A DNA stretch of 64,000 nucleotides from Candidatus Woesearchaeota archaeon (GTDB taxonomy: Archaea > Nanobdellota > Nanobdellia > SCGC-AAA011-G17 > ARS1403). The notes under the pieces were generated by a model. The model did not search any database. It was not told the origin of the DNA and worked only from the letters and a program-made list of their open reading frames with translations. The stretch is taken from NCBI GenBank assembly GCA_018302705.1, contig JAGVZI010000007.1, forward strand, positions 1,070-65,069. Reading direction: 5' to 3'. Position 1 is the first letter of the stretch, and each line of letters starts with the position of its first letter. The translations under genes and the position numbers were made by a program. This document shows positions 5,226 through 52,400 of the stretch, piece by piece.

Positions 5226-6371
5226 CTAAATCAGCCCGGTAAGAATCCCAAACATAAAATTAAGCAACCTTCCAAAAAATGGCGCTAGCGAGATGACAAT
5301 AAGGAGCAGGCAAAAGATACCGACGCCAACCCATATTTTTTTTGCTGTATCTTCTTTTTTAAACAAATTCAGGCATAGCAGATAAAACATCTTGCCTCCA
5401 TCTAAAGGTCCCATTGGCAACAAATTAAAAAGACCAACACCTAGGTTCGCGGCAAAGATCCAAAAAAACAGCAAAGCTACCCAGGAAAAAATATTTCCAA
5501 GCACACCATACTTCTCGTTAATATATTGTTTCTCAGGAGTAAAGCTCAATCCCAAATATCCCCTTCCATCATTTTCAGCAACAACTAGTTTATATTCATT
5601 TTTATCAGTCTTAAGCAATGCTTCATCGCCAGGTTTAATCTCGACTAGCAGCTCTAGAAATTCATTAACGCTTGCAACATCAACATTATTAAACCCAAGT
5701 ATTCTTTCATCGTTCTTAATCCCGGCATCAAAGGCAGGGCTTCCCTCCTTGACATCTTTTATAACAATCCCTTCGCTGACAGTCATAGTAGACACTATAG
5801 GGGCCAAGACAAAGATAAACAGCAGGAAAAAAATCCCGGCAACTATCAAATTGGAAAAACTCCCGGCAGCCAAAACTCCGAGCTGCTCTCTGCTTTTTTT
5901 ATTGCCTAATTCTTTCTCGTCAGGCTCTACAAATGCAGCAGGTATTATCGGCAGCAAAAATGAAAACACAGCAAACCCGCTGGATTTAACTTTCACGTCA
6001 TAAAGCCTTGCTATTAAGCCATGGCTAAACTCATGCACCCCGGCCAAAATAAAAATAGCGATGATCCAATGAAAAAAACTAAGCACAGGCAGCCCAGGAA
6101 CAGTTTTTATCCCGGGAAATAAGGGAGCGACAGGAGGGGGAGCGCCAGCAAACAAAAATCCGTATGTCCCTTTTATAAGCAAAGCCAGGATGACAACCAT
6201 TCCAAGGAATCCAAATACTATGCCTAAAAACGCGAACCCGCTTACTAATCTTGGATATCTTTTAGCAATCTTATCCATGAAGACCAACCCTATTTTAGTC
6301 CTGTACAGCACCATGTAAACAAGAGGAAAAAGAATCTTCTCAACCTTGATCCTCTCCTTATTCAAAAACAT
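5226..6371 (-). CDS. Site-2 protease family (M50) membrane metalloprotease with PDZ domain
   Basis: HEFSH, AGSFSN and NLLPMGPLDGG motifs; PDZ-like VKEGSPAFDAGI; true start may be ATT at 6434. Confidence 0.92.
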   Translation of the reverse strand: MFLNKERIKVEKILFPLVYMVLYRTKIGLVFMDKIAKRYPRLVSGFAFLGIVFGFLGMVVILALLIKGTYGFLFAGAPPPVAPLFPGIKTVPGLPVLSFFHWIIAIFILAGVHEFSHGLIARLYDVKVKSSGFAVFSFLLPIIPAAFVEPDEKELGNKKSREQLGVLAAGSFSNLIVAGIFFLLFIFVLAPIVSTMTVSEGIVIKDVKEGSPAFDAGIKNDERILGFNNVDVASVNEFLELLVEIKPGDEALLKTDKNEYKLVVAENDGRGYLGLSFTPEKQYINEKYGVLGNIFSWVALLFFWIFAANLGVGLFNLLPMGPLDGGKMFYLLCLNLFKKEDTAKKIWVGVGIFCLLLIVISLAPFFGRLLNFMFGILTGLI

Positions 6372-6450
6372 GACTGCTAGAAGAATTAATCCAAACCCAA
6401 ATAGTAATACTAAATCATAGTTAACATTGACAATAAGTTATCACCTCGTA

Positions 6451-6615
6451 TCACCTCTTGCTCTTTATCATTCTAAAGCTCTTCCCGCCGCATCTTCTGC
6501 AGCTAACTTTTTTCAGCATAACCTTCCCCATATCAGCCTTCCTTTTTGTTTTGCATTTTTTGCAGACAAAGACCCCATGAAATAATCTTGCAGTTGCTTC
6601 AGGAAACCTAACCAT
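6451..6615 (-). CDS. rpl40e: 50S ribosomal protein L40e
   Basis: Not in ORF track; MVRFPEATARLFHGVFVCKKCKTKRKADMGKVMLKKVSCRRCGGKSFRMIKSKR zinc ribbon. Confidence 0.88.
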   Translation of the reverse strand: MVRFPEATARLFHGVFVCKKCKTKRKADMGKVMLKKVSCRRCGGKSFRMIKSKR

Positions 6616-7007
6616 TATTTCATCTCCATCATTACTTTTTCATCCAGAACAATCCAGTAAAGCACCTTCGTTCCGTTCTCAATTTTTCCTTTCAGCTCGT
6701 CGGGAATTTTAAGGTTGAAAGTTTCAAAATTCTCCTCGTCCATAACGGTCGCATTATCTTCATGAATAGACAAAACTTGGGCTGATTTTTTTTCTATAAC
6801 AGGGCTGTCAATTTTATCATGCCCTGGCAGCACCAGAACCTTTTTCTCCCCCCTTATTAATCCAACAGATTCTATCCTGCATTTCGCATGCCCGTGTTTT
6901 CCGGTTTTGGAAATATCCATCTTAGTCACTCTGCATGCAATTCCGTCGACAACAACATACCTCCCTATCTTCAAGCTAGTAACCTGTACTTGTTTAATCT
7001 CTGTCAT
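6615..7007 (-). CDS. eif5a: Translation factor aIF5A
   Basis: Hypusination loop SKTGKHGHAK. Confidence 0.95.
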   Translation of the reverse strand: MTEIKQVQVTSLKIGRYVVVDGIACRVTKMDISKTGKHGHAKCRIESVGLIRGEKKVLVLPGHDKIDSPVIEKKSAQVLSIHEDNATVMDEENFETFNLKIPDELKGKIENGTKVLYWIVLDEKVMMEMK

Positions 7008-7107
7008 TCTCAACTCAAACTAAAATTTATTTATAAACTATTTGGTTTTAAAATTTTAAAGGAGAAGTTATAAAAACCTTTCTCATCGCAATCTAAGCAA
7101 TCAAAAT

Positions 7108-7755
7108 ATGGCAATAAAAAAACACGACTTCATTGAAATAGAATACACGGCAATAATCGAAGACACATCCCAAATATTCGACACAACAGACGAGGAGACT
7201 GCAAAATCAGCAAATATCTACAATAAAAATGCAAAATATAATCCGGTTGTAATATGCGTAGGTGAAAACCAGATTCTAAAAGGATTGGATGAATCTCTAG
7301 TCGGAAAGCAGCTAAAAGAAGCAGAGTATGAGATTCAATTGCAGCCTGAAGATGCATTTGGCAAGAAAAACCCGAAGCTCCTCCAATTAGTCTCGCAATC
7401 ATCATTCAGAAAGCAGAATATAATTCCGTATCCCGGTTTGCAAATTAATTTGGATGGGATTATGGGAACGATAAGGACAGTAACCCCCGGAAGGATTATA
7501 GTGGATTTCAATCATCCTTTGGCAGGCAAAAAAATAATTTACAAAGTAAAAATAAAAAGAGAAGTAACAGACAAGAAGGAAAAGCTCGACTCATTATTGT
7601 CGTTTTATATAAAAGACTTCAGCACAGAGATTAACCAGGATGAGGTAGTAATATCCGCAAAAGCAAAGATTGAAAAAGAGCTCCATGAAGTCTTGAAAGA
7701 GAAAATAACTAGTTTAATACCCCCAATTAAAAAGGTAACAATCAAAGAAGAATAA
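7108..7755 (+). CDS. FKBP-type peptidyl-prolyl isomerase (SlyD-like, long form)
   Basis: IEIEYT, FDTT, PEDAFG and VDFNHPLAGK motifs. Confidence 0.92.
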   Translation: MAIKKHDFIEIEYTAIIEDTSQIFDTTDEETAKSANIYNKNAKYNPVVICVGENQILKGLDESLVGKQLKEAEYEIQLQPEDAFGKKNPKLLQLVSQSSFRKQNIIPYPGLQINLDGIMGTIRTVTPGRIIVDFNHPLAGKKIIYKVKIKREVTDKKEKLDSLLSFYIKDFSTEINQDEVVISAKAKIEKELHEVLKEKITSLIPPIKKVTIKEE

Positions 7756-7787
7756 TCTTTATATATATTATCGCTTTTTCTTTTAAT

Positions 7788-10025
7788 ATGGAGATAAATA
7801 TTAGAGGTCAAGAGGAATTCTCAGGAAGGCAGGAAAGTCGAAGATCAAATGAAGACATCGACAGGGAATTAGAAGAATTATTGTCAAAACATAGAGCCAA
7901 AATAAAGGTGGTTGGAGTAGGAGGGGGCGGCAATAACACAATAAACAGGGTTACAGAAATAGGTGTTTCAGGAGCGGAAACAATCGCGGTTAATACAGAT
8001 GCTCAAGATCTTCTTTACACGAATGCAGATGTAAAAATCCTAATCGGAAGAGAAACAACTGGCGGGTTAGGAGCAGGCTCTATCCCAAAAATAGGAGAAG
8101 AGTCTGCTCGGGAGAATGAGCAAGATATAAGGAAAAGGTTGCAGGGAGCAGACATGGTTTTTATTACTTGCGGCTTGGGTGGCGGCTGTTTAACAGGAGA
8201 TTCCTTAGTATACTCAAATCCAAAAGGGCCTGTAAGAATAGATTCTATAAAACCAGATAACCGTGTTTATTCTTTTGAAAACGGGAGATTAGTAAGAAGG
8301 AAAGTCTTAGCTGCAATGAAAACAGGTGTAAAAAAAGTTTTTGAAGTCAAGACAAAGAATCACTGTCTGCAAGCATCCTATGATCATCCGTTCTTAAAAG
8401 TTGTTCCAGAAAAACTAGAGAAGCAAGGAAGATTCTATGATTATACTCTTGAATGGTCGCCAGCAGAAGCTTTAAAGAAAGGTGATCTAGTTGTAACTTT
8501 AAGAAATATTGATGAAACCAAAGAAGGGCTTAAAATAGATGATATTAACATTGATGAAAAATTCTGCAGACTATATGGTTTTCTTCTTGGGGATGGATGG
8601 ATAACAAGAAGTAAAGACAGCTGGAAAATCTGTTTCTCTCCCTCAAAAAATAAGGAACAAAATGAAAAATATATAGAATTAATTAAAGAAGTATTCAATC
8701 TCGAAATGAAATTTGGTGGCAATTGGTATTATGCAAACTCAAAAAAAGCATATGAAATCTTAGAGGAACTTGGATTAAAAAAACCAGCAAAAGAAAAAGA
8801 GATTCCTGAATTTATTTTCAAATTTCCAAATTCATGCAAAAAAGAATTTATTTTAGGTTTAGCAGATGCAGATGGTCAATATTACAGACAGATAAAAGAT
8901 GATGGAAGAGAAAAAAATGAAATAAGGTTTGAAATGAGCAGTGAAAAACTTATCAGGCAGTTAAAAGTTCTCTGCAATTATCTTGGTTTAAGAGCAAGCA
9001 ATGTAAGTTCAAGAACAAGGGAAATAAAACCTCCAAATTCAAAGCAAAAAATAAAATCCACTTCCTGGAATTTAAGAATTTATAAGATTTATCAGCTAGA
9101 TGAAAGTCTCGAAAATACAAGAAATAGAAAAGGCATTGGATTGCTATATAAATATCATAGGAGAATGAAACTAAATAAGCCCAAAATATTCAACAATTTT
9201 GGTTTCGGAAGAATACAATCAGTAACCGAAGTTGGAGAAAAAGAGGTTTATGACATAACAGTTGAAGGAAGCCATAACTTCGTTGCTGAAGGCTTTGTTG
9301 TTCACAACACTGGAACTGGAGCAGCACCTGTAGTAGCAGAGGTTGCAAAAAAGCTTGGAGCCTTAACAGTCGGCATAGTAACCATCCCGTTCACAATGGA
9401 AGGCCAAAGAAGATATGAAAATGCAATTATGGGATTAGATAAGCTGGAAAGGACCGTAGATACTTTAATTGTAATCCCTAATGACAAGCTTCTTGAACTA
9501 GCCCCTGATTTGCCATTACAAACCTCGTTCAAAGTGGCTGATGAAATCCTGACAAACGCTGTTAAAGGTATAGCAGAATTAGTTACAAAAGCCGGCCTCG
9601 TTAATCTCGACTTCGCAGATATCAAGGCAGTTATGAGCGACGGCGGAGTTGCTTTAATTGGAGTTGGCGAAAGCGACACAGAAAACAGGGCAGCAGAGGC
9701 AGTTGAAAAGGCAATCTCAAACCCACTATTGGATGTAGATATTAGCGGCGCAACAGGCGCATTAATCAACGTATCAGGCGGCCAAGATTTGACATTAAGC
9801 GAGGCAAGAAAAGTCGTAGAGACCGTTTCAGAAAGGCTTGATGACGATGCAAGAATTATCTGGGGCGCCCAGATCTCAGATGACTTGGAAAACACGCTCC
9901 GCACAATGCTGATAGTCACAGGCGTCACCTCTCCACAAATCTTCGGCAAGAGAACAGCACCTCCTCCAAGAAAAAAAGCAAAATCTGAAATCGAAGAGGA
10001 ATTAGGAATAGACTTCGTTGATTAA
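7788..10025 (+). CDS. ftsZ: Cell division protein FtsZ precursor containing an intein (371-aa extein)
   Basis: [27 protein letters not shown] split by an insert, PFTMEG, NLDFAD; first gene of the ftsZ-secE-spt5-rpl11 cluster. Confidence 0.96.
8187..9308 (+). mobile_element. Intein (374 aa) with LAGLIDADG homing endonuclease
   Basis: Block A CLTGDSLV, block [16 protein letters not shown] and [10 protein letters not shown], block [13 protein letters not shown], block G VVHN followed by Thr+1. Confidence 0.95.
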
Positions 10026-10101
10026 ATTTTAAAATTAACTTCGTTACATTTATAAATCCAATTTCTACAAGTTTTAATTAAACTTTTTATAAAAGGTTAA
10101 A

Positions 10102-10299
10102 ATGGAAGAGCTCGAGCAGAATCAGACATTACTATCTCGCCTAAAGTCGTTCATCTTGGAATCCAGGCGGGTGTTTAGGATAACAAAAAGACCAAGTAAG
10201 GATGAGTTCAAGGCAATAGTTAAGATATCCTCAATTGGAATTGCATTGATAGGCATCATCGGCTTCATAATCCAAATCATCTGGAGATTAGCATCATAA
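10102..10299 (+). CDS. secE: Protein translocase subunit SecE/Sec61-gamma
   Basis: RRVFRITKRPSKDEF plus one TM helix IGIIGFII; conserved position. Confidence 0.92.
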   Translation: MEELEQNQTLLSRLKSFILESRRVFRITKRPSKDEFKAIVKISSIGIALIGIIGFIIQIIWRLAS

Positions 10300-10300
10300 C

Positions 10301-10765
10301 ATGACTCAAATTTTTGCATTAAGGACAACTGCAAACAGGGAAGACCAAGTAGTGGATTTCATAGCCAACAATATAAAAAAGCACGGCTTGAAAGTTTACG
10401 CTATTATCCGTCCTCATGGCATGCGCAGCTATATCTTTCTAGAGGCAGAAACAAAACAGGATGCTCAGGAAGCCTTTCAAGGAGTCCCCTATGCTAAATC
10501 ATTATTAGATGCCCCGGTAGATTACAGGGAAATCGAGCCTATGCTAGAGCAGGCAAAAGCCCAGCTTAATATCCAAAAAGGAGACATTGTCGAAATTATT
10601 TCAGGTCCGTTTAAGAGGGAGAATGCAAAAGTCACAAGGATAGACGAGCAGAAAAACGAAGTCATTGTCGAATTATTAGAAGCAGCAGTTCCAATTCCAA
10701 TCACAGTAAAATTAGACGCAGTTAAAGTTATAAGGCGGGATACAGAAGAGAAAAGGGAAAGATGA
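10301..10765 (+). CDS. spt5: Transcription elongation factor Spt5 (NusG family)
   Basis: NGN domain plus KOW GDIVEIISGPFK. Confidence 0.95.
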   Translation: MTQIFALRTTANREDQVVDFIANNIKKHGLKVYAIIRPHGMRSYIFLEAETKQDAQEAFQGVPYAKSLLDAPVDYREIEPMLEQAKAQLNIQKGDIVEIISGPFKRENAKVTRIDEQKNEVIVELLEAAVPIPITVKLDAVKVIRRDTEEKRER

Positions 10766-11511
10766 GTAGAGAAATAATAGAATTAATGGTGGAAGGCGGC
10801 CAGGCAAAGGCAGGAGCGACAATCGCACAGCCCTTGTCGCCACTAGGGATGAACATCCAAGAAATAATCAAGAAGATAAACGAGAAAACTTCTTCTTTCA
10901 ACGGAATGAAGGTCCCTGTGAAAGTAATAGTTGAAACAGAGGACAAGTCATTTGATTTAAAAGTAGGAACACCTCCAATTTCAGAACTAATCAAGAAAGA
11001 AATAGGTGTCGAAAAAGGCTCAGGCACGCCAGACAAAAATAAAATTGGAAATTTGGCAATCGAGCAGGTAATAAAATTGGCAATGATGAAGCAGGATTCC
11101 TTATTATTCAACAACTTCAAGTCAGCTGTAAAAACAGTAGCAGGCTCATGCAACTCATTAGGAGTTTTAGTTGAAAGCAAATCAGCAGTTGAAATAAACA
11201 AGGATATAGACTCGGGAGAATACGATTCCCTAATCAGCAATCAGGTTATACAACCCTCTCCGCAAAAACTAAAAATCCTCGCCGAGCAACTAAAAGAAAT
11301 CCAGGAGAGGATCAAGAGAGAAATAGAGAAGGCAGAAGCAGAGAAGAAGGCAGAAGAAGAGAAAGCAAAGAAGCTGGTAACCGAAGCAGAGAAAGTAGTA
11401 GAGGAAACAGCGGCTGAGAAGAAGGAAGGAGCAGTAGAGGCAAAGACAGAAAAAGCAGAAGTAAAAGAAGAGAAGCCTGCAAAAGAAGTAAAAGCAGAAA
11501 AGAAAAAATAG
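10762..11511 (+). CDS. rpl11: 50S ribosomal protein L11 with long Lys/Glu/Ala-rich C-terminal tail
   Basis: VEGGQA, LSPLGMN, KVPVKV, VGTPPIS motifs; about 90 extra C-terminal residues. Confidence 0.92.
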   Translation: MSREIIELMVEGGQAKAGATIAQPLSPLGMNIQEIIKKINEKTSSFNGMKVPVKVIVETEDKSFDLKVGTPPISELIKKEIGVEKGSGTPDKNKIGNLAIEQVIKLAMMKQDSLLFNNFKSAVKTVAGSCNSLGVLVESKSAVEINKDIDSGEYDSLISNQVIQPSPQKLKILAEQLKEIQERIKREIEKAEAEKKAEEEKAKKLVTEAEKVVEETAAEKKEGAVEAKTEKAEVKEEKPAKEVKAEKKK

Positions 11512-13421: not shown

Positions 13422-13573
13422 ACTCTATTTCAACAATGCTTAAGAGTATATAAAAATTGTTTAAATTTTAATGAAGTACCTATTATTACTAACATTATTG
13501 CTTATTTCGGGACACTATATAGCGCAGGCAAACAAATAATTTTATAAACAAAATTAACCAGTTTGAAGTTTAT

Positions 13574-13665
13574 GGGGCTGTGGTCAAGCTTGGTTACGAT
13601 TCAAGGTTTGGGACTCTTCAAGAGCAATTAACCTTGCGACCCAGGTTCAAATCCTGGCAGCCCCA
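13574..13665 (+). tRNA. tRNA-Pro(TGG) with 18-nt intron at 37/38 (13613..13630)
   Basis: Acceptor GGGGCTG/CAGCCCC, anticodon stem CAAGG/CCTTG, T arm CCAGG-TTCAAAT-CCTGG. Confidence 0.9.
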
Positions 13666-13721
13666 TCTCAAAAACCAAAGTTTTTTAAATAAAATCTCGG
13701 AGAGTTAAAGGGAGTTAAATA

Positions 13722-34427: not shown

Positions 34428-37400
34428 TTATGTCGAAGCAACAGCGGTTAATTCTCTTCTCCAGGCTTCTGCATGTCCTAAAACAGCAGGAACATAATTC
34501 TGCGTTTCAGATGGCAATGAAGATTTGCATTCATTAAAAGGTTTACTTTGACATTTGCTATTAACCTTAGTTGGTCCAGCATTGTAAGCAGCCAGAGCTA
34601 ATTCAATGCTTTTATATTTGTCAAGCTGAATTTTGAAATACCTCACTCCAATGTAAACATTATCCTTCCAATTTGAACGGGATTTCTCTGGTGCAAATGG
34701 ATTTTCTGCAATTAATTCTAAGTTAACATCGGCCTCAGCATCGGGCATTATCTGCATCAATCCAACTGCCCCTGCTGGAGATCTTGCTTGTTTATTTCCT
34801 CCAGATTCTTGAGTAATCATTCCCAAAATCAAAGGCAATGCATTCTCATTTCCAAAAACCTCATTCACAGTATTCTTAATATAAACATAAGTTTCACCAC
34901 CAGGATTTTTAGTTTCTGTAAAAACCCCCCCAACTGTAGGTTCAGTAGAATACTCTTCTTGAATTTCAGGTGTAACAGGTTGGGCTGGGGCCGCAGGAGT
35001 AGCTACTGCAGGAATTACCTCTTTTCTAAGCACACATCTCCCATCCTGGCAGGCACTTCCTTCAGGGCAAAACACAGTCTCGGCAACACATTGTTCGCTT
35101 ACGCAAGAATACTCAATCAATTTTCTATCGCCATCGCTCCCGCAAGCCTCTCTCTCAACTTTAACACCGTTATCAGTATATATGCAAGCCTGTTTCTTTC
35201 CAATGTCTCTTCCGCCAAAGTCATTGCATCCGGAAAATGCAGGATCGTAAATCACAATGCTTTTTTCTTTTATTGAATTCGTAGTTCTGCTAGTCGCATC
35301 AGTGCATATCTGATCGCTCAAAGTTCCGCTTTTAATCAGGCTGAATTTTAGATTGTATTGATCCGTAGGAGGAACATCAACCCCGATTCTTGCTTCAGGA
35401 ATATTCCACACATTGAAATTAAGCCCGTCTTCAATATCATGCGCAATAAACCTCTTAGTTTCTCTAAAGCCACTGGCCCTGCCAAGGATTTCAACCTTGA
35501 TTTCAACATCTTTCTCAGGCCTTTCTATATCAATTAGATTTTCATTAACAACCTCTATCTTGTCGCCATATTTATATGCAGGAATATCAGAGCTAGCACC
35601 TTTAAAAGTAATATCCTTATTAAACACAGCCCTGCAATCACTCTTAACAGTTTCGCTGCTATAAGCAGTTCCTAAATCAGCAACATTAGGATCAGTTCCC
35701 TCTCTAAACTCCCTTACATTCGTTCTTCCATCTCTGTCATTATCTAGCAGGGCATCGTTTGCATCATTAGGATTCAACTTATTAGCATTCTCCCAATCAT
35801 CACTCATTCCATCTTTGTCAGCATCAGCAAAGTCATCCTCACCATATCCAGTAAGCTCTGCTATTATTCCGCTTCCTCCTCTTCCAGGAGGGAAGCAATC
35901 CTCTTTGGCTTCACTAGGAATATTAACGCAAGCCTCTGTGTAATCAACTTTATCCAAAAACTGCAGATACCCGCTGTCATGATCTCCTGCTCTGTCAAGG
36001 AAGATTTCTTTATTTAATAATTGGCTTCTTCCCCCGCCGGGATTCTTTAAATAAATCTCATACCTCATATTATCCCTTCCAGCCAATATCATCCAGTCAA
36101 TTTGGTATTCAAACACAGGCTCCTTCAATGGAGTTATATGACTCACTTTGGAATTCCAGTTAATGGAAACACTAGTCCCGATAAAGGGCCTGTTCAAATC
36201 AAAGTTTGCAAAAGTATCAATATTAGGAAGCCTTTTGTATATTGCCAATGAGCAGATAGTTTTAATAATCGGCAGTTCTGCATATCCAACACCGCCGCCA
36301 GCCCCGGTCCTGGCAAGCTCAGCCAAATCTCCTCGAGCAAATTCCTTGGCATCATCCTTGCCTTGCTTAGCAGCCCCCTTTAAACTGTCAGCTTCCCTTG
36401 CCTCCAAAAGCGAACCTTCGATTCCAGCTCCACCTAAGTTATTAGCAGATCCACTCCCAAACAATTTACCAAAAGCCTTTTTAATAAAACTAGTCCCGAA
36501 GAAAGCCTCTACTTCTTGTGTAACAAAAGTACAAATTCCATAATTCAATAATCTATCGCACTGCCCGGTAAATTTTCTTCCAGCCCTGGCATCATTCAAG
36601 CAGAAATTCCATTCCTGAGCAATCGCTCTTAGCTGATATAATTTAGTTAATATCCCACTAATGCAACCGCAACCAACACTCAAAAGCAAACTATCTTGGA
36701 TTCTCGTTGCTCCTTGTCCAAAAGTTATTGGTTGATTAATATTCTTCGGAATTCTTCTATCAGTTCCAGAAACAGTTTTTATTTCCCCCTTCTCATTCGT
36801 CTCCCAAACAGGCGTTTCCTTAATCCCGTCATTGTCCAAATCTAGTTTCTCCTGAATCTCCTCGGTTCCAATTTGAATATTCGCAACCCTGCACCAGTTC
36901 TTAGGGCAGACAGCAACAGCGCACATGCTCCTTCCAGAAATTACAAAGCTATTGCTTTCGCTCCTGCCTCTAGTTGTAAATGCAACCCCCCTCAAACCCT
37001 TAGGTCCGTACCAAATAAAATCAGCAAGGTCAAAAAAATTGCCTGCAAAATACTTTATTATCGGAGTAGCGAGCTTAGCAGCAAAAACAGCAGCAATGGA
37101 ATAAACGCACAGTTGAAAAGTAAGGCTGAATGCTTTTTCAAATTTAGGAATTAAATCCTCTGTGAATTTTATAATGTCTTCAGATAATTCAAGCCCGGCA
37201 TCAAGCGCAAATTCAGGAGGCTGCACAGCAACAGTGTCTATCGGAATATTAATAGTTATTTGATCTATTTCAGTCGGATATACAGGATCACAGCCAATCT
37301 TCTTCCCATTTTCATCTCTTTTAACTATGCATTGATTAGTCCTGACAGTGCAAGTAGTTTCAATCTCATCAATCCCGCTTATCCTGTCAGAAGGCAAAGA

Positions 37401-38045
37401 AGTCAAATCCTTTGCAACAACATCACCCTCTCCTCTTTTGAATACTCTGAACTCAATTAATCTCTTAGTAGTGTCCTTGGCATCCTGTGGAAGCACCATC
37501 ATTCTTGCATTCAAAAAGCTTCCAGGAATCCTTCTATTCTGCTCCCCGCTTCTGCTGACAATTCCAGTGCCAGAATCGCAGCTAACAAAGACATCTCCCA
37601 ATTCAACGTCTTCAGCTTCAAATCTGGAATTAAAAGCAAGCTTGATTGGCTGATAAACCAAAACACCATTTAGAGAATCAGTTAGCCAATTCACTTTCAA
37701 AATCTCAGGCTGCAATCCTCCATCTCTCGAAACGCTCCAGAAATCATATTTCCTGGCTACCTGATCAGGAGAGCATCCGCTGTTCAATTCTCCCCTTCCA
37801 ACATTGCTTCCACTAGTCCCCAGGCACAAGTCGCCATAAAGAGTGTCGTCGCATCTTAGCTGATTATATCCAGTTTTGCCTTCATGATAAGGATCATTTC
37901 TAGGCCTGTCACAAACACCGTCGCTATCAAGATCATATACATTGCTAGACTCAGGTTGGCTTTGTGATTGCGCAAAAGTAATTGAAGTATTTAATGAAAT
38001 CCCGATTATCAAAGACATTAAAAACAAAGCAGCTACTCTCTTCAT
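34428..38045 (-). CDS. Large secreted protein with Ca-binding DxDxDG repeats and C-terminal lytic transglycosylase (SLT) domain
   Basis: Signal peptide; DADKDGMSD/DNDRDG repeats; ITQESGG, GAVGLMQIMP, ALAAYNAGP, ETQNYV motifs at about 34450..34900. Confidence 0.88.
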   Translation of the reverse strand: MKRVAALFLMSLIIGISLNTSITFAQSQSQPESSNVYDLDSDGVCDRPRNDPYHEGKTGYNQLRCDDTLYGDLCLGTSGSNVGRGELNSGCSPDQVARKYDFWSVSRDGGLQPEILKVNWLTDSLNGVLVYQPIKLAFNSRFEAEDVELGDVFVSCDSGTGIVSRSGEQNRRIPGSFLNARMMVLPQDAKDTTKRLIEFRVFKRGEGDVVAKDLTSLPSDRISGIDEIETTCTVRTNQCIVKRDENGKKIGCDPVYPTEIDQITINIPIDTVAVQPPEFALDAGLELSEDIIKFTEDLIPKFEKAFSLTFQLCVYSIAAVFAAKLATPIIKYFAGNFFDLADFIWYGPKGLRGVAFTTRGRSESNSFVISGRSMCAVAVCPKNWCRVANIQIGTEEIQEKLDLDNDGIKETPVWETNEKGEIKTVSGTDRRIPKNINQPITFGQGATRIQDSLLLSVGCGCISGILTKLYQLRAIAQEWNFCLNDARAGRKFTGQCDRLLNYGICTFVTQEVEAFFGTSFIKKAFGKLFGSGSANNLGGAGIEGSLLEAREADSLKGAAKQGKDDAKEFARGDLAELARTGAGGGVGYAELPIIKTICSLAIYKRLPNIDTFANFDLNRPFIGTSVSINWNSKVSHITPLKEPVFEYQIDWMILAGRDNMRYEIYLKNPGGGRSQLLNKEIFLDRAGDHDSGYLQFLDKVDYTEACVNIPSEAKEDCFPPGRGGSGIIAELTGYGEDDFADADKDGMSDDWENANKLNPNDANDALLDNDRDGRTNVREFREGTDPNVADLGTAYSSETVKSDCRAVFNKDITFKGASSDIPAYKYGDKIEVVNENLIDIERPEKDVEIKVEILGRASGFRETKRFIAHDIEDGLNFNVWNIPEARIGVDVPPTDQYNLKFSLIKSGTLSDQICTDATSRTTNSIKEKSIVIYDPAFSGCNDFGGRDIGKKQACIYTDNGVKVEREACGSDGDRKLIEYSCVSEQCVAETVFCPEGSACQDGRCVLRKEVIPAVATPAAPAQPVTPEIQEEYSTEPTVGGVFTETKNPGGETYVYIKNTVNEVFGNENALPLILGMITQESGGNKQARSPAGAVGLMQIMPDAEADVNLELIAENPFAPEKSRSNWKDNVYIGVRYFKIQLDKYKSIELALAAYNAGPTKVNSKCQSKPFNECKSSLPSETQNYVPAVLGHAEAWRRELTAVAST

Positions 38046-40033
38046 TCAAACCTCACCCCTAATTTATCAAAATGTTTTTCACTTAGTGATTTAACATCCG
38101 AATTCTCAATATAGTCCTCAAAGTTTCTCGGAATTCCTCTTGATAATGCCAGCACAATAATTTTGTCTTTTTCAAGATCATCTAGGCTGATATAAGTCTC
38201 AAAATCTGCGCCTCCAAGGAAAACGCCTTCAACTTTTTGATCAGGAACCTCTCTCCCTTGAAATTCACCTCCAGGGATCGTAATCTCCTCATTAAGAATC
38301 AAATCAACAGCAACATTGTATTGCTCCTCAAACAGCAAAGGAGTTTCTAAAATCTCGTTCCCGTTAAACAAAAGGGCAAAACCTTCCTTAAAGCTGCCTC
38401 TTCCAAGGTCTAAAACAGTGAATCTAACGCTTGCCTGCTCATTCTCCATCAGCTCTCTCTCAAGAACATTCCCGTCTTTCAATTCCAAAACTCTGACTTC
38501 AACTTTTTTATTGACATAGGGCTTCATCGCAGCAAAAACGCTGTTCCTTCCAGTATTATACGTATCCAATTCCTGGTAAAACTCGCCGTATCCATCCTTG
38601 GACAAAATAATCTCTCCTCCCCTGCATAAAGGAAATTCCTCTTCTAAAACAGATCTTCCATTTTCAATTTTAGTTTTGCCTACAACGCAGTTATTAACCC
38701 CGCAGACATACACAACATTTACATCATCCAATGCATTGCTTGTCAGGGCATCAATGCTTTCCACGACAACAGCCTCGCTTAATTTTTGATTCTCATCGCA
38801 GAATAATCCGCCAGCTTCATCCTCCACGCTAACAACGTCGCCATCAATAAGTCTCCCTCCAAAGTTGTCAATTATATAAATCTCAATTGGAAACCTAAAT
38901 GCAAAATTGTCATTCTCTAAATTCACCATCAGCGGATATTGCAAAGTATATCTAAAATTATGATTTGTAAAGCAAAACAGCGGGATAAAAGGCAGCCCCA
39001 GTTTCAAGGTGCTGGGCTTCAACACATTCCCGTCTCGGGGATAAACATCCAAAAAGAACGCCCATCCAGGATTATAATTAAAACTCACAATTGTATCATC
39101 GTGCTCTCCAGAAAAAACATCCCCTATAATCAAGCTGTTATAAAACTCTCCTCTTACATCATTATTTGCTCCTTCAACTCTAAAAAGCCTGGAGATAGTT
39201 CCAAGATATTCCTCTATATTTTCCCTGACTTCATTCAATGTCCAAGTATTAGGATTGCATTCATAATTAAACTCGGCAATTGGAGGTATTGAAATCAGCG
39301 AATTTTTATCCTTGGCATAAGCAGCTATCAAATCAATTGTCATGGCTTCAAAAGGTGCATTCCCGATCTCAGATCTTCTAAGCTCTCTGTTAACAATGTC
39401 AACAGCCATATTATATAGCATCTTCAAATCAATTGGAACATCTATTCCAATGTAGTCGGAAATAGGAAAAATATTTTCTTTAATACCAACGTCGATTTCG
39501 GATTTTAATTTCACAGAAATCTTCCCATTTAATATTCCAGCTTCGCTTTCAATCTGTTTGGTGCTAAAGTCATAATCAGGAAATTCATTAAAGCCACATT
39601 CACTATTAAATCTCCTGTCAATATATCTCTCAAGTTGATCTTCCATTTCTTGAATAGTAGGGACATCAACATTTCCCCTTCCATAAATCCAATAAGGCGC
39701 CTTGTAAATGGGATCAGTCCGCAGGTAAGCTCTTGGATTAAAGCTTATAGAATTAGGAATCTCTATATATCCGCCTTGAAATCCCAGCAGCTCAACTCCA
39801 TCCCTCGCAATTCTCTCAATACAGTTATTAGCATAGTCTACAACGCCCTTAGCCTGCTCAGGGACAACGCTTACTCCAAACAGCTCACTCTCAATTTTCT
39901 GCCTGAAGCTCTCGTTTTGTATATACCCGATAAAGAATGCAGCAAATAATATGACAATCCCGGCAATAATAAATAAGGTAACCTGCCCTCTTTTCCCGAT
40001 CCCTCTTTTCCCGACGATATTCATTTTATTCAT
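38042..40033 (-). CDS. Class III signal peptide (prepilin-like) protein, 663 aa
   Basis: KRG/QVTLFIIAGIVILF N-terminus; related to 54604..55404. Confidence 0.8.
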   Translation of the reverse strand: MNKMNIVGKRGIGKRGQVTLFIIAGIVILFAAFFIGYIQNESFRQKIESELFGVSVVPEQAKGVVDYANNCIERIARDGVELLGFQGGYIEIPNSISFNPRAYLRTDPIYKAPYWIYGRGNVDVPTIQEMEDQLERYIDRRFNSECGFNEFPDYDFSTKQIESEAGILNGKISVKLKSEIDVGIKENIFPISDYIGIDVPIDLKMLYNMAVDIVNRELRRSEIGNAPFEAMTIDLIAAYAKDKNSLISIPPIAEFNYECNPNTWTLNEVRENIEEYLGTISRLFRVEGANNDVRGEFYNSLIIGDVFSGEHDDTIVSFNYNPGWAFFLDVYPRDGNVLKPSTLKLGLPFIPLFCFTNHNFRYTLQYPLMVNLENDNFAFRFPIEIYIIDNFGGRLIDGDVVSVEDEAGGLFCDENQKLSEAVVVESIDALTSNALDDVNVVYVCGVNNCVVGKTKIENGRSVLEEEFPLCRGGEIILSKDGYGEFYQELDTYNTGRNSVFAAMKPYVNKKVEVRVLELKDGNVLERELMENEQASVRFTVLDLGRGSFKEGFALLFNGNEILETPLLFEEQYNVAVDLILNEEITIPGGEFQGREVPDQKVEGVFLGGADFETYISLDDLEKDKIIVLALSRGIPRNFEDYIENSDVKSLSEKHFDKLGVRFE

Positions 40034-46427: not shown

Positions 46428-49400
46428 TTAAGGATTAATCCTCACTACTCCCATCTCATTGCCCCACAAATCCTCGCATCTGAAATAATAGCTTCCGCTA
46501 GTAGTAATAAGTTGCTTAGCCCTATTTGTAGTATCCTTTCCAACACCTTGCCATCGGCTTTCATCAGCAGGAACAGAATCGCCAGTTGCAATTTCACACT
46601 CAGCCTCCTCGCTGACAGTTATATACTTGTTGCCTTCAACAGTAACTATCTGCCTTATCTCAGGAGCAATTTTATCTTGCAGAACATTGACAGCAAAGTC
46701 CTGCTCAGCAACTTGCCCAGCGCTATCGCTGCATTCAGCTTTAATGTTGTAAACACCATCGGCATTGACACTAATATTGGCAGTATGCACAAGCGCTCCA
46801 GATCCTAAATTTATTTTAGCTGCATTAATTCGAGCAGAGCCTATTGTAGTGTAAGTGCATTTAACGTCGCCAACACCCCCAACAGTCGCTGTAGCAGTTT
46901 CAATTATCCTTTTTCCATAATTTCCAACAGGAAGAGAGAATAAAATGCTCAGCTCTTGAGACTCAGGAACTTCGATATTGAAATTAATTCTTCTTAATGG
47001 GGTTAGTCCGTCAGAAGCTTGGCATCTAATATAATATTCATGACTTCCAACATTAAGGTTTCTCAAAATTTTACTATATCTTGTAGCGCCTCCGAATACC
47101 CTTTCATAATCCATAGCCCCATCATAATCATTCGGATCAAATCTCTCTTCTAGCTGTCGAGTAAATCCTTTTCTATAATAGCAAGTTGCAATTCCATTTT
47201 GATCAGGGCCGCCTCTCAATTCCAGGAAAAGCTCAGGTCTTATTGTTTGTACATTACCGCTAGGACCTACCTGTCCCAAGATTAAAGATGAAACAACAAC
47301 ACCAGGTTGACCTCCAGGCTTGCTATTAGGATCTAAAGGATTTGTTCCAGCATCAACTTCTTCTCCGTCGCTAAATCCATCTCCATCGCTATCTCTTCTA
47401 TCAGGATCAGTGCCGATCTCTTCTTCCTCATCTTTTGTCAATCCATCTCCATCATTATCAGAATCGCCATCAGTAGTAATAGAAGCAACCAACACTCTCA
47501 ACAATCCAGATTTTTTATCTCCAGCTTCAACATAGTACTCGCTTCTAGGATCAAATCCATCATCCACTTGAATCGCAGCAGTCCATTCAATAATAGCACC
47601 CTCAGGAGCAGGAATTATAATTCTTTTTTCATCTACAGTATCGTCTATCTGGCCCCAGTCAGTTATAAACACATCCTTCTCTTTTATTTTATAGTTAATA
47701 GCATCTCCTGCTCTGCAGTTATTTCCCTCTATTAATATGTAAGACTTACTTCCACTTTGAATGCTTGCAATATTAGTCCCGCTTATATCCTTCCAGCTCA
47801 CTGATTTAACAGAGCAAACATCTCCTGTAGGCGGCGGTGTTTCTGGTGGCTCTTCCCCACCAGCTGAACTTACACTTATTCTTATTGTTGCCTCTGCTCT
47901 TTCTCCATTTCTATCTGCTGCTCTAACTTTAGCTGTATAACTTCCAGCATCTGAATAAGTATATCTTATTGAACCGCTAGTTATTATTGTTTCAAATATT
48001 CCGTCGTTATTAAAGTCCCAAGAATATGTAAAAGGTGAATTTCCATTTGTAACTGCCGTCGTAAACTCTACTTGTAATGGTGCATCTCCGCTTGTTGGAT
48101 TAGCAGCTATTTGAATATTAAATATAGTGTCTTCTTCCTCTTCTTTAATCTCTTCACATACATTTCCTATCCCATCATTATCGCTATCAGCTTGATCAGC
48201 ATTGGCATTATTTGGACAATTATCCCTGTTATCTGGAATGCCATCACTATCAGTATCTGCATTAAAAGAATTTATCTTGACAGAAGCAGTATCATCATCT
48301 CTCAACTTTCCATCAAAAACAGTCAACACAACTCTATAATCGCCAGCAGCAGTATATTCGTTGCTTGGCAAAGCTCCGCTTCCTCTTTTACCGTCGCCAA
48401 AGTCCCAGTCATAAGTCAAAGGATCTCTATCAACATCATTGCTATTGCTTCCATCAAAGTAAACTCTAACTCTTCCATTAGCATTAAGAGTTGCTTCCTT
48501 ATCGTCTCCAGCATTAGCAACAGGAGCCTGATTGCCAGAAGTATCATAAGGATTCACTTGAACATTTGCCTTATCTTCATTACTCAAACCGCCTCTATCA
48601 GTTACTTTCAAAGAAACATCGAATACATCAGCTTTCCTATATTCATGTTTCACTACAGACCCTCTTGCTTCAGCACTTCCATCGCCAAAGTTCCAAGCAT
48701 ATTCCAAAGGCAATCCTTCAGGATCATTACTATTTCTCCCATCAAAAACCACTTCAACTCTATTATTTGCATCTAAAGATACATCCTTATCTTCGCCGGC
48801 ATTAGCAGTAGGAGGATCATTTTCAAGATGATTATAAGCATTAATTTGTATGCTAATCTCATCAGTATCTCTCCCGCCTTTATTATCGTCGACAGTCAAT
48901 ACAACATCATATTTTCCATTAAGATCGTATACTTTACTTGGTCTCACTCCCCTTAATCCATTGCTCCAAGAATATGTTAATTGATCATTATCAGGATCGC
49001 TACTTCCGCTTCCATCAAACTGCACAGTAATTCTATCATCAGAATTTAAAGAAACTTTTTGATCTTCGCCAGCATTAGCAACAGGATTATTATTTATTCC
49101 ACCACCAATAACATTTATAGTAGTAGTTCCTTCTCCAACGTCACCATCATTATCTCTTACTAAAACTTTTACAGTGTAACTACCCGCCTCGCTATAAACT
49201 CTAGTAGGATTTGAATTACTTGAGTCTACAACTTCATAGTTTCCATTATTATCATAATCCCAAGAATATTTATAAGGAGCATTTCCATCCTTGACAGCAA
49301 CGCTGAATCTCACTGTCAAAGGAGATTTTCCAGAAGAGGGATCAGCACCTACAGAGAGAATTTCAGGAACTGTGTCAATACCTCCAGGATTAGTTCCGCG

Positions 49401-52400
49401 AGGATCTACATGAATATTTAGAGTGTCTTCAGCTTGTTTATCCTTGCTATCCTTAACAACAACTTTGGCAACATAATCTCCATCTGCAGTATAGGTACGA
49501 GATTTAATGTCAGGCACATTACTATACTCAAAATTCCCATCATTGTTAAAGTCCCATGAATATCTATAAGGGGCATTTCCATTTGTTGTAGCAACATTGA
49601 ATGTAACTGCCAAAGGAGCATCTCCAGAAGTAGGTCCTCCTCCCAATGTAACAACAAAGTCTCCTTCTGTTGGAGGTGTTGTTACAGCAGGACAATTATC
49701 TCCAATATCAACACAATTATTATTCGAATCATAAATTCCAGGACAACTATTTACAGTGCAACTTCCTCCAGGTATTGGCTGAGTAGAACTTCCGCAAGAA
49801 CTAACATCAAATCCACTGCAATCACTTTCGCATCTCAAACTTCCAGCACTAAATCCAAAATTACTGCAACTTTTTCCATTTAATAAACTGCCATCACAAG
49901 TCTCTCCAGCATCTAATCTATCATTGTCACAATCAGCAGGATTTTGAGGAGGTTGTTGAGTCGGACAATTTGGTTCGGTTTTAATGCAAGTTAAGGCATT
50001 ATTATATCTCCCTTCGCAATTATTAGCATCCTTACAAACTTCTCCCGCTTTAGCACCAGGAGGAACAGGTTTCTGTTTTATTTTAATTATCTGGGATTTC
50101 TTCTGAGCAGAAGCGCTTATTATTTCACCATTAGCAGCAACTAGTTCAGGATCCTCATCTCCATATCTTCCATTTGCATCTTTCTGCCATGATAAAGTTA
50201 TAAATTCAACATCGTAGTAACCGCCACCACTACTTTGTCTATCTAATTTCAATGTCCTCGGGAAATCCATAAAAGAAATCTGCTCATAAACATCCTCTCC
50301 CAAAACTCTCTCATAATCATACAAATCAATTACAACATCAACATTATTGCATTGCTCATTCCCTTTAACTTTTAATGCAATTTCAGTTCCTTCTTCTATT
50401 GAAGCTTCATTGGAATAAGGCTGACCTCTTTCTAAATCATACCATTTTACTTCTGTTATCTCGCAACCAGCAGACAATCCACCACCAACATCAGAAACAC
50501 AAACTCCAGCATTATTAGGATCATCATTAAATCCAGTAGCACACCCATATCCGCATTTATTCTCTCCACTCCACTTGCATCCAGAATCTTTAGCGCTTAA
50601 GCAGACAGCTTGGTTCTGATCAAAATAATCATTATCACATTTTATTGTGCAACTTCTCTTCTTAACACATGTTCCATCATTATTAATGCCTTCAGGAGTT
50701 TCAGAACAGGTCTCGCATAAAGCCTCAATGCATTGTCCAATCTGTCTGCCATTTTGAGTATTCTGATCATTGCAGTCCAAGGCATCTTCAACACCATCAT
50801 TTTCCTGATCGCTCAGGCATAAAGGATTTGGCTCTGTTGCACAATAAGAAGTTCTATATTCCTTAATAACACTAGGGCAATTTGCAGTAGAGCAGTAACC
50901 ATTAACACAATTCTGTCTTACACTATTTAGTTGTTTGTTGCATAAAAATTCCTGGCTTTGAACTTCAGCGCAATAAGCATCTCCAGGACACTGAAGACAT
51001 ACAGTAGCAGCATTATCGGCTGTGCAAGCAACAGCGCCTACAGGAGGGGCTATATATTTTTCAAATTTAATATTTAAAACAGCATTAGCAACATTCTCAA
51101 GATCATCTATAGCCTCGCATCTGACAGTGATTCGGTAATCTCCATTTGTCGAAAAAAAATCAAAGCTCTGTTTATGTATGTTCCTATCCTCATACCCCGG
51201 ATCAGCATCTGTGCCGAAAGGGACTCTCTGGATAGATACATCATCATAAATGTACGAATAAGAACACATAGCTCCCCGGCCCATGCCCCCAGAAGTTCTT
51301 ACCTCCAAGACATCAGTCTGGCGGATAGTAGCCCCTTCAGTTGGGCTAGTTATATCTATTTGTAATGGAGTAGCTCTATTAATAACATAGCCGTAAGGAA
51401 CCGGATTCCTATTATTCCCCTCATCCTTGCATGCAAAATAATAATTATTAACTCCGTCATTGACATTAACATCTAAACTGCAGGATTTAAAAAATGAACC
51501 GCTATATCCAGAAGGTAAATTAGAGGATCCTTCAGCAGAAATATCTCCACAATTAACTTGTTGCTGCATAGCATCAAACCCAATAAATTCATCGCTATAT
51601 CTGCAGCTCTCAACACCACTTAAATCACTTACAATAAATCCAATTGTAACAGCATTAGATTCAGAACTAGGCAAAGTATAAACATCGCTGCTTTGACCTT
51701 CATCTTTAGGATTGAATAAATGGATAACAGGAGGATCTGTATCCCCAACACCGTCTGTCAATCTAAATCTAACAAAATAATCTTCATTATTATCATTCCC
51801 GAAGAAATCGCTGCATTGAACGTAAAACACACAACCATCATCATCAGAGCATCCTAGCTTATCTTTTTCAGTCCAATCATCAAATGAAAATGGATAAAGA
51901 TGGTCTTTCCCATTGTACAAAGTTTGCAATAAGCCAACCTTTTTATCTCTCATATTTTCTAAGATTTTATCATATTTATTATCTTCACTCATCGAACTAG
52001 TCACGCCCTCCTGCAAATTAACTCCAAACAAGCCTCTTTCTGGAATAGGGCTCATTCTACAGTTTGAAACTTTATCTGTTGTTAAAATTAAACCATATTT
52101 CTTATCCTCAACAAGGTCTTTCACATCGCATCCGTTAATTCCAGGAGGAATCCCGCTGGGAAGAGTGCCTGCTCCTTGGCCTTGAATTCCAGTATCAGGA
52201 TTATAAGTTGGAAGCAAAGCAAATGATCTAGGCAAAGCTTGTCTACCTCTATTAAATTGTACAATATCCTGTTTGACTTGCATAGTTCCGATATCAACCA
52301 CACCGCATGTATTTATTAGAGGGGGGTTTTTATCAGCAATAGCTTCATCTAAACAAACCCCTTCACTGGCATCCCTAACTGTTGGCTCAAAAACACAGTT

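Follow-up and report, generated by a model that had tools for sequence, protein, structure and literature searches.

The ftsZ gene of the 64-kb stretch of DNA analysed here (the window) is interrupted by an intein. We regard it, with a probability of roughly 85%, as a selfish and horizontally mobile class-1 intein with a LAGLIDADG endonuclease and constitutive splicing, seated in the T4 loop of FtsZ. The host would be a DPANN (Woesearchaeota-like) archaeon, and the lodging site the phosphate-binding T4 loop, split as GGG/TGTG. Since what appears to be one element occupies the same FtsZ site in many other ultra-small archaea and bacteria, it has probably moved between the domains.

The intein within ftsZ

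A single unbroken reading frame of 745 aa (7788..10025, forward strand) encodes FtsZ with the intein inside it. In the window sequence Cys1 is read from TGT at 8187-8189, the terminal His-Asn from CAC AAC at 9303-9308 and Thr+1 from ACT at 9309-9311, so the length of the class-1 intein is 1122 nt or 374 aa. The junction flanks are FITCGLGGG and TGTGAAPVV, i.e., the tubulin/FtsZ signature GGGTGTG is cut after the third Gly. The initial annotation had placed a 374-aa intein with Cys1, His-Asn, Thr+1 and two LAGLIDADG motifs at 8187-9308, splitting GGG/TGTG, and this proved exact.

The precursor matched Pfam Tubulin (143 bits) and FtsZ_C (121 bits), as well as Intein_splicing (58 bits, cut-off 35.8) and LAGLIDADG_3 (28.6 bits, cut-off 22.5). 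Among the NCBIfam models, intein_Nterm and intein_Cterm were each above cut-off, the latter (TIGR01443) with 39.5 bits vs 15.6 for the intein C-terminus. The insertion is in frame, and removal of the intein gives a contiguous canonical FtsZ of 371 aa, which TIGR00065 (ftsZ) matched as one stretch with 450 bits, compared to 426 bits for the precursor and a cut-off of 295. The GTPase domain with the GGGTG(T/S)G signature and the FtsZ C-terminal domain, which define FtsZ, were both found above the curated cut-off. Methanocaldococcus jannaschii FtsZ (1w58/1fsz) matched the spliced product with 435 bits and gap-free across TCGLGGGTGTG, the insertion point being Gly134/Thr135 of that chain. The matches to FtsZ and to intein domains are far above chance. 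No second ftsZ and no other intein were found within the 64-kb window. The GC content of the endonuclease domain is 28-31% vs 41-48% in the exteins, and the intein as a whole lies 8-12 points below the exteins at every locus examined.

The genes from 6615 to 11511 (Table 1) form the archaeal ftsZ-secE-spt5-rpl11 neighbourhood. The gene order was identical in the intein-bearing relatives L005, L006 and L007, and the intein-free relative L004 has the order FKBP-ftsZ-small ORF-spt5. Host domain was judged by this gene context: FKBP-ftsZ-secE-spt5-L11 was taken as archaeal (window, L005, L006, L007), and ftsA-ftsZ with dcw genes as bacterial (L001, L003).

Table 1. Features of the interrupted ftsZ gene and its neighbours; positions are those of the window.
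Feature	Position	Strand	Basis or remark
aIF5A	6615-7013	-	upstream neighbour
FKBP-type PPIase	7108-7755	+	directly before ftsZ
N-extein of ftsZ, FtsZ residues 1-133, ends FITCGLGGG	7788..8186	+	Tubulin/FtsZ GTPase domain, first part
Intein, 374 aa, class 1, Cys1 to His373-Asn374	8187..9308	+	Intein_splicing, intein_Nterm, intein_Cterm; AF2; fold match
Hint N-terminal part, intein residues 1-113, incl. block A CLTGDSLV	8187..8525	+	kept in all mini-inteins; Cys1 83/83
Block B, Ser64-x-x-His67 (TxxH equivalent)	8367..8396	+	Ser 82, Thr 1 of 83; His67 83/83
Double-motif LAGLIDADG homing endonuclease domain, intein residues ~114-304	8526..9098	+	Pfam, AF2, fold matches, mini-intein deletions
LAGLIDADG motif 1 LYGFLLGDG, catalytic Asp136	8571..8597	+	sequence; Asp in 72/75 full-length homologues
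LAGLIDADG motif 2 ILGLADADG, catalytic Asp229	8850..8876	+	sequence; Asp in 74/75 full-length homologues
Hint C-terminal part, residues 305-374; blocks F and G at 9246-9308, ending VVHN	9099..9308	+	intein_Cterm
C-extein of ftsZ, starts Thr+1 TGTGAAP; stop codon 10023-10025	9309..10025	+	rest of GTPase domain and FtsZ_C
SecE	10102-10299	+	directly after ftsZ
Spt5/NusG	10301-10765	+	after SecE
Ribosomal protein L11	10762-11511	+	after Spt5/NusG

Residue conservation was tallied over 83 same-site homologues, of which 75 were full-length and 8 mini-inteins. Cys1, His67, His373 and Asn374 were each present in 83/83, as was Ser or Thr at position 64. Block B reads Ser64-Tyr-Asp-His67 here, a conservative exchange of Thr for Ser that we counted as class 1. 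Asp356 and His363 of block F were found in 74/75 full-length copies and 8/8 minis. The -1 residue was Gly in 83/83, and at +1, 80 copies have Thr and 3 have Ser. The AF2 model of the intein (pLDDT 90.4, pTM 0.89) has the Hint fold, with Foldseek matches to inteins including the mini-inteins 6frg and 1am2; this fold together with Cys1, block B, blocks F/G with His-Asn, and Thr+1 assigns the element to class 1.

In the endonuclease domain, AF2 places helix 124-136, strands 137-142 and 145-150 and helix 156-170 in the first half, and helix 215-229, strands 230-236 and 242-250 and helix 253-265 in the second, which with the Foldseek matches corresponds to the pseudo-dimeric alpha-beta-beta-alpha-beta-beta-alpha LAGLIDADG fold. 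I-DmoI and I-Tsp061I were matched at ~2e-6 (Foldseek), and PI-PfuI and PI-SceI were also among the fold matches. The two LAGLIDADG helices have acidic ends, Asp136 and Asp229, in agreement with Pfam LAGLIDADG_3. A sequence search against solved inteins gave only short matches in blocks F/G, and the relatives came from fold comparison. The model of the 745-aa precursor (pTM 0.54) was of low confidence at both junctions, with pLDDT <60.

After translation, the Hint domain would excise itself by way of a Cys1 thioester, attack by Thr+1 and cyclisation of Asn374, and the two extein halves would be ligated to normal FtsZ. Such protein splicing is suggested by the invariant catalytic residues and by extein dN/dS values of 0.04-0.06 between intein-bearing relatives, i.e., strong purifying selection. 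The same two observations argue against a dead allele or artefact, be it an ftsZ pseudogene or an assembly chimera, which was only an a priori possibility. In addition, the 745-codon frame is intact, and contigs identical to the window cover the N-junction and the intein in each of three public runs (the best of them may be the source sample of the window). Run X4 also has matching pieces, and the same architecture was found in no fewer than 83 clusters drawn from many studies. This reading is effectively refuted, and the dead allele considered in the initial annotation does not apply here.

Alleles and movement between lineages

An intein was found at the same FtsZ site in at least 83 public-metagenome protein clusters (75 full-length, 8 mini-inteins), and there were 21 carriers in a scan of one genome per species. 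Titles of the carrier genomes name Woesearchaeota, Aenigmatarchaeota, Nanoarchaeota, Patescibacteria, Saccharibacteria and Staskawiczbacteria. The copies mostly lack a name or are labelled "hypothetical protein", "LAGLIDADG family homing endonuclease" or "cell division protein FtsZ". The early impression that the site is little described thus holds for the freely accessible full texts that were searched, in which no natural FtsZ intein was described, but not for public data, in which the allele is common. The main text of a 2015 intein survey does not mention FtsZ. According to a statement in a 2023 survey, no cytoskeletal intein hosts had been reported before its Anaeramoeba dyneins and kinesin (PMC10710043).

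Intein-free alleles were found as well, in syntenic loci; one of them, the archaeal L004, reads GLGGGTGTGSAP at the site. The 8 minis have 8 differing deletion boundaries, with most or all of the endonuclease domain gone and the Hint splicing residues intact; they were shortened independently. Archaeal and bacterial FtsZ hardly differ in the 14 residues to either side of the insertion point, and every allele shows amino-acid constraint in the flanking extein. Metagenome contigs from four runs were placed on 7300-10500, and the organism's own contigs contain the intein. Among the contigs of these four runs, none showed an empty ftsZ of the same strain, contigs being prone to mask rare variants. 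Joints that skip the intein (8167/8170 to 9309) had 16-19 mismatched letters and short sides, and therefore belong to the empty ftsZ of other organisms.

These alleles would fit a homing cycle. The freed endonuclease would cut an intein-free ftsZ at the DNA encoding GLGGGTGTGAAP, and repair from an intein-bearing copy would install the element. Cleavage of DNA is made probable by the conserved residues and by selection on the domain, and the predicted target region is conserved across the carriers and the empty allele. The target is near-identical in archaeal and bacterial FtsZ, and lineages would stand at differing stages of the cycle: empty site, full intein, decaying endonuclease and mini-intein.

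On the extein tree, intein presence needs 12 changes, of which well-supported branches demand at least 8; for the mini state the number is at least 7. The inteins of bacterial hosts were not monophyletic (AU p 0.00045), nor were those of one well-supported archaeal host clade (AU p 0.0005). Both AU tests thus give the conflict between element and host trees by which homing is recognised. Across domains, the inteins are on average 61% and at most 80% identical, vs 45% and 54% for the exteins; in the pair with 80% intein identity the exteins share only 48%. At the DNA level, L005 and L001 are 74.6% identical in the intein and 53.5% in the extein. Judged from these sequences, the intein appears to have moved repeatedly among DPANN lineages, and at least two crossings between DPANN archaea and CPR/Patescibacteria bacteria are indicated. 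The transfers are probably too old for co-conversion tracts to be traced in the flanking extein DNA, intein identity being no higher than 80%. The initial annotation had taken the intact endonuclease motifs as a sign of a mobile element, and the tree conflict, the empty and mini alleles and the purifying selection on the endonuclease bear this out. The viral contigs of IMG/VR held no close relative (best intein 28-30% identity) and no cross-domain carrier.

Selection and possible roles in the host

Within the window's clade, dS was 0.69-0.89 for the intein vs 0.94 for the extein. The two being similar, the intein did not enter this genome by a recent transfer; in this small clade the intein has long been vertically inherited and kept intact. 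The endonuclease domain has a dN/dS of ~0.09, equal to that of the Hint domain, which denotes purifying selection. Where the intein looks fixed, such selection on the endonuclease is not fully explained by simple homing.

One could suppose that the fixed intein keeps its LAGLIDADG domain for a host role other than homing; it might bind DNA, or assist splicing structurally or in the manner of a maturase. Low endonuclease dN/dS in a clade with apparently vertical inheritance agrees with this, and LAGLIDADG folds have been domesticated elsewhere, with WhiA among our fold matches (rank 43). However, the eight independent deletions leave the splicing residues of the Hint core intact, so the domain appears dispensable for splicing. 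The catalytic Asp residues are conserved as well, beyond the fold alone, and the repeated transfer seen in the AU tests requires active homing, at least in the recent past. We consider domestication of the endonuclease very unlikely.

The initial annotation further proposed that splicing could gate cell division. In this reading the intein would act as a co-opted switch after translation: the precursor would be unable to bind GTP or polymerise, and a cue (e.g., redox, metal, temperature or host contact) would permit splicing and hence division. Conditional splicing is known for the RadA, DnaB, SufB and PolII inteins. The T4 loop that receives the insertion binds phosphate and lies at the longitudinal interface of the filament, and from what is known of FtsZ structure a precursor interrupted there should be inactive before splicing. 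Long vertical retention of the intact element in the window's clade would also suit a switch, as would the near-invariant Cys127 (72/75) and Cys263 (75/75), both within the endonuclease domain. Against this, insertion into a conserved nucleotide-binding motif is already predicted by the target choice of the endonuclease. The occurrence of the intein is scattered: close relatives differ by many gains, losses and independent deletions of the endonuclease, and intein-free sister lineages divide without it. The +1 residue is Thr or Ser and never Cys, the extein Cys at -6 is missing in bacterial carriers, e.g., L003 and L018 (TAGMGGG), and Cys60 is variable, which leaves the junctions without a conserved disulphide trap. 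A conserved junction sensor (redox Cys pair) was sought in the 83 homologues and none was found.

The claim of gating is unsupported, and a switch is unlikely. It is equally improbable that the rate of splicing sets the GTP-competence of FtsZ in these ultra-small, host-dependent DPANN/CPR organisms, where precursor with an intact T7-loop face could cap filaments sub-stoichiometrically. If true, division would be sensitive to the splicing cue (redox, metal, temperature or host attachment). Patchy gain and loss, the lack of a conserved junction Cys pair and strong selection on the extein fit a constitutively splicing selfish element.

Significance and comparison with known systems

With this intein, FtsZ, the core division GTPase of prokaryotes, joins the list of intein hosts, and the position agrees with the rule that ultra-conserved nucleotide-binding motifs are where inteins settle. 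The spread across domains is the more interesting part of the finding. Nearly the same element sits in the archaeal (secE-spt5-rpl11) and the bacterial (ftsA/dcw) ftsZ of co-occurring groundwater nano-organisms. This gives a clean and datable marker for the passage of DNA between DPANN and CPR. The target motif, the FtsZ signature, is probably the same in the FtsZ of model organisms, and if so the intein could become a test case or a tool for intein control of division.

The inteins of Pyrococcus horikoshii RadA and of mycobacterial DnaB and SufB likewise interrupt essential proteins within or close to the site of nucleotide binding, and their precursors are expected to be inactive. Their dependence on a stimulus has been measured, whereas the FtsZ intein showed no conserved sensor feature. 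The best fold matches were the Thermococcales VMA inteins TliVMA and PhoVMA (7qsu, 7qss, 7qst; E 1.7e-22 to 4.5e-18, TM 0.64-0.71), with TliVMA 7qsu on top (E 1.7e-22, TM 0.71). They are archaeal, similar in size and built of Hint and double-LAGLIDADG parts, but identity is only 17-21% and their host is the catalytic subunit of the A/V-ATPase, not FtsZ; nothing points to a shared origin nearer than the level of the intein superfamily. PI-PfuI (ribonucleotide reductase intein, 1dq3) and PI-SceI (yeast VMA1, 1vde/1lws) were matched at E ~1e-15 to 1e-16. Both are canonical bifunctional inteins, which splice by class-1 chemistry and home into the empty allele by means of a LAGLIDADG endonuclease. 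In contrast to the FtsZ intein they are larger and carry extra DNA-recognition regions (14-17% identity), and their homing has been shown experimentally, while that of the FtsZ intein is deduced from trees, alleles and selection.

The nearest sequence relatives outside FtsZ are inteins in phage T4-like portal protein, terminase, SufB, a Mrp/NUBPL-type P-loop ATPase and subtilases. These (P0131, P0134-P0137, P0139 and P0144) share 28-41% identity (170-215 bits) and a LAGLIDADG_3-type endonuclease, and by sequence belong to the same intein subfamily. Scores of 521 bits within the FtsZ set stand against at most 216 bits outside it, a gap that marks the FtsZ inteins as an allele family of their own, tied to one insertion site.

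The intein-bearing ftsZ and its surroundings

The ftsZ of the window was found to be one open reading frame of 745 aa with no interruption of the frame. Its two ends were recognized as FtsZ (Pfam Tubulin 143 bits, FtsZ_C 121 bits; NCBIfam TIGR00065 426 bits), and the insert between them passed the cut-offs of Pfam Intein_splicing and LAGLIDADG_3 as well as of NCBIfam intein_Nterm and intein_Cterm. The flanks, GLGGG and TGTGAAP, place the break in the FtsZ/tubulin signature 3' of the third glycine. The intein-less product comprises 371 aa, is matched by TIGR00065 in one stretch (450 bits) and aligns without gaps to Methanocaldococcus jannaschii FtsZ (1w58/1fsz), the site falling between Gly134 and Thr135 of that chain. 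The initial annotation had described the intein exactly with respect to coordinates, residues, motifs and split site. No second ftsZ and no further intein was found within the 64-kb window.

Features of the window
Feature	Position	Strand	Description
ftsZ ORF	7788..10025	+	745 aa
Intein	8187..9308	+	374 aa, middle of ftsZ ORF
Cys1	8187-8189	+	TGT; opens block A CLTGDSLV
Block B			[10 protein letters not shown]; Ser64-x-x-His67
Cys127	8565-8567		inside endonuclease domain
LAGLIDADG motif 1	8571-8597	+	LYGFLLGDG
LAGLIDADG motif 2	8850-8876	+	ILGLADADG
Cys263	8973-8975		inside endonuclease domain
Blocks F and G			[12 protein letters not shown]...GFVVHN
His-Asn intein terminus	9303-9308	+	followed by Thr+1
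Metagenome joint	8210-8760		skips 549 nt inside intein
tRNA-Pro(GGG)	13573-13667	+	95 nt (ARAGORN), 92 nt (Rfam)
SLT-domain protein	34428-38045	-	1204 aa
ORF adjoining SLT-domain gene	38042-40033		662 aa
PKD/TSP3 protein	46428-52652	-	2073 aa
ORF upstream of PKD/TSP3 gene	52649-54607		651 aa

The host is an archaeon, as judged from the gene order around ftsZ (aIF5A, FKBP-type isomerase, ftsZ, SecE, Spt5/NusG, ribosomal protein L11) and from Orc1/Cdc6 and diphthamide synthase, also encoded in the window. Two genomes titled Candidatus Woesearchaeota archaeon are the nearest species-level carriers, their inteins being 86% and 83% identical, and the sequence occurs in metagenomes from groundwater and soil. 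The gap between ftsZ and secE is about 75 nt and without an ORF, in contrast to the closest relative, locus L006, where three genes, one of them for a ParE-family toxin, are inserted at 5286-7008.

Several other features of the window were recorded. The tRNA-Pro(GGG) exceeds a standard tRNA by about 20 nt, probably an archaeal tRNA intron. At the C-terminus of one long protein lies an SLT lytic transglycosylase domain (72 bits), found here in an archaeon; enzymes of this kind cut peptidoglycan, and this one may be directed against bacterial neighbours or hosts. The giant protein with at least six PKD domains and TSP3 repeats probably acts at the cell surface or in adhesion. The ORF adjoining the SLT-domain gene had no Pfam match, and neither had the one lying directly upstream of the giant gene and overlapping its start.

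Same-site inteins and their splicing residues

When the full protein was compared with the database, 83 clusters (90% identity) among the best 120 relatives carried an intein exactly between GGG and (T/S)G(T/S)G, the remainder being intein-free FtsZ. Seventy-five of these inteins were full-length (364-379 aa) and eight were mini-inteins (145-198 aa) in which the endonuclease region was largely or wholly missing. When one genome was scanned for each prokaryotic species, with a threshold of at least 55% identity over the intein, 21 carrier genomes were obtained, titled Woesearchaeota, Aenigmatarchaeota, Nanoarchaeota, Patescibacteria, Saccharibacteria and Staskawiczbacteria. With 83 clusters and 21 species genomes, the supposed uniqueness of the FtsZ-site intein did not hold. 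Public annotation of the carriers reads "hypothetical", "LAGLIDADG family homing endonuclease" or plain "FtsZ".

Cys1, His67, His373 and Asn374 were invariant in all 83 copies, and residue 64 was always Ser or Thr. Asp356 and His363 were kept in 74 of the 75 full-length inteins and in all eight minis. Position -1 was Gly throughout, while +1 was Thr in 80 copies and Ser in three. The AF2 model of the intein was confident (pLDDT 90.4, pTM 0.89), and its top PDB fold matches were endonuclease-bearing inteins: TliVMA 7qsu (E 1.7e-22, TM 0.71), PhoVMA, PI-PfuI and PI-SceI. Between intein-bearing relatives the exteins showed dN/dS of 0.04-0.06, which argues that working FtsZ is produced and therefore that the intein must come out. 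Conserved residues, fold model and extein selection together strongly suggest a splicing-competent intein. As a separate observation, Cys127 was present in 72 of 75 and Cys263 in all full-length FtsZ inteins; structural, metal-binding and redox functions are candidates.

Probable mobility and transfer between domains

The relatives cover every stage of a homing cycle: empty site, full intein, substituted catalytic Asp and mini-intein. The empty site was found in a syntenic archaeal locus, L004 (FKBP-ftsZ-small ORF-spt5). In four full inteins a catalytic Asp was replaced: Asp136 by Asn in two and by Gly in one, and Asp229 by Ser in one. The eight minis had eight different deletion boundaries, and several of these minis were placed beside a full-length sister whose exteins are nearly identical. 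Mapped onto the extein tree, the full-intein state required 12 changes, at least eight of them forced by well-supported branches.

The inteins of the 22 bacterial hosts did not form one clade (AU p 0.00045), and archaeal and bacterial hosts were mixed within both main intein clades. Within one strongly supported archaeal host clade the inteins were likewise not monophyletic (AU p 0.0005, a value somewhat weakened because the group was named after the trees had been seen). Across domains, protein identity averaged 61% for the inteins, with a maximum of 80% (clusters P0048 and P0072), versus 45% for the corresponding exteins, which never exceeded 54%. At the DNA level archaeal L005 and bacterial L001 were 74.6% identical in the intein and 53.5% in the extein. 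The host domain of the carriers was verified by gene context on the contigs: in bacterial L001 and L003 ftsZ is immediately preceded by ftsA, with the further dcw-type neighbours ddl, Mur ligase, mraY, ftsW and murG in L003, while L005, L006 and L007 lie in an archaeal secE-spt5-rpl11 neighbourhood. The insertion target is nearly the same in both domains, with [14 protein letters not shown] before and TGTGAAP(V/I)VA after the site. Intein GC was 8-12 points under that of the exteins in every locus examined. Comparison of the window with L006 gave dN/dS of 0.09 for endonuclease and Hint domains alike, i.e., purifying selection.

Mobility, as the initial annotation had proposed, was supported by the tree conflict in the AU tests, by empty and mini alleles, and by purifying selection on the endonuclease; these independent lines indicate that the element has been mobile, if not now, then in recent evolutionary time. 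A selfish homing intein, predicted both to splice and to cleave, is the best explanation, to which we give a probability of roughly 85%. Notably, the intein appears to have been exchanged at least twice between DPANN archaea and CPR bacteria. Judged from record names, archaeal and bacterial carriers share aquifer wells; Hainich well H51 was the source of both L006 and the Patescibacteria carrier L018. No close relative of the intein was found on viral contigs.

Two carriers deserve separate mention. In L001, titled Saccharibacteria, a gene with a ComEC/Competence domain lies directly downstream of ftsZ (8222-9547), a hint of DNA uptake as a possible route for foreign intein DNA. Contig CAZPLB010000002.1 (loci L003 and L021) is titled "uncultured Gammaproteobacteria bacterium", a label that looks doubtful since its FtsZ extein and intein both group with Patescibacteria-labelled sequences.

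In the window's own clade, dS was similar for intein and exteins (0.69-0.89 versus 0.94), which points to vertical inheritance with no recent acquisition. The organism's own sequence was intein-bearing every time in metagenome contigs, which can hide rare variants, and joints skipping the whole intein belonged only to ftsZ of other organisms. Contigs of three metagenome runs had a joint inside the intein, with a matching side of only 24 nt; this could be a related intein of another organism or a partly deleted variant.

The proposed division control and comparison with known inteins

The T4 loop of FtsZ touches the phosphates of GTP and is located at the longitudinal interface between subunits. 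A 43-kDa insert in this loop should block GTP binding and polymerisation, and the premise that unspliced FtsZ could not bind GTP was therefore reasonable. That splicing regulates FtsZ is nevertheless very improbable, and the proposal found no support. There is no conserved Cys pair at the junction: position +1 is occupied by Thr or Ser, several bacterial carriers lack the extein Cys at -6, and intein Cys60 is not conserved. In addition, the element is gained and lost among close relatives, and hosts with endonuclease-free minis or empty alleles appear equally well served. At its junctions the AF2 model of the precursor was of too low confidence to bear on the question. A precursor whose T7 face remains intact could poison filaments; this would favour rapid splicing no less than a switch.

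No description of a natural FtsZ intein was found in the full-text literature, InBase and subscription journals lying outside the search, nor in the main text of a 2015 intein survey or in a 2023 Anaeramoeba paper (PMC10710043). According to the latter, cytoskeletal proteins were unreported as intein hosts before the dyneins and kinesin of Anaeramoeba. Host protein and insertion site are what is new, and their status as undescribed is provisional; same-site inteins are nevertheless common in public data. Of the initial interpretation as a whole, the intein and its mobility stand, but not division gating or uniqueness.

In a library clustered at 50% identity the FtsZ inteins were set apart, with 521 bits within the set versus at most 216 for the next inteins, which reside in phage portal protein, terminase, SufB, Mrp/NUBPL ATPase and subtilases. 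All testable intein hallmarks were present, and the architecture and predicted mechanism are those of a textbook bifunctional intein. The element is a new intein allele with good support, useful for tracing exchange between the domains, rather than a new kind of system.
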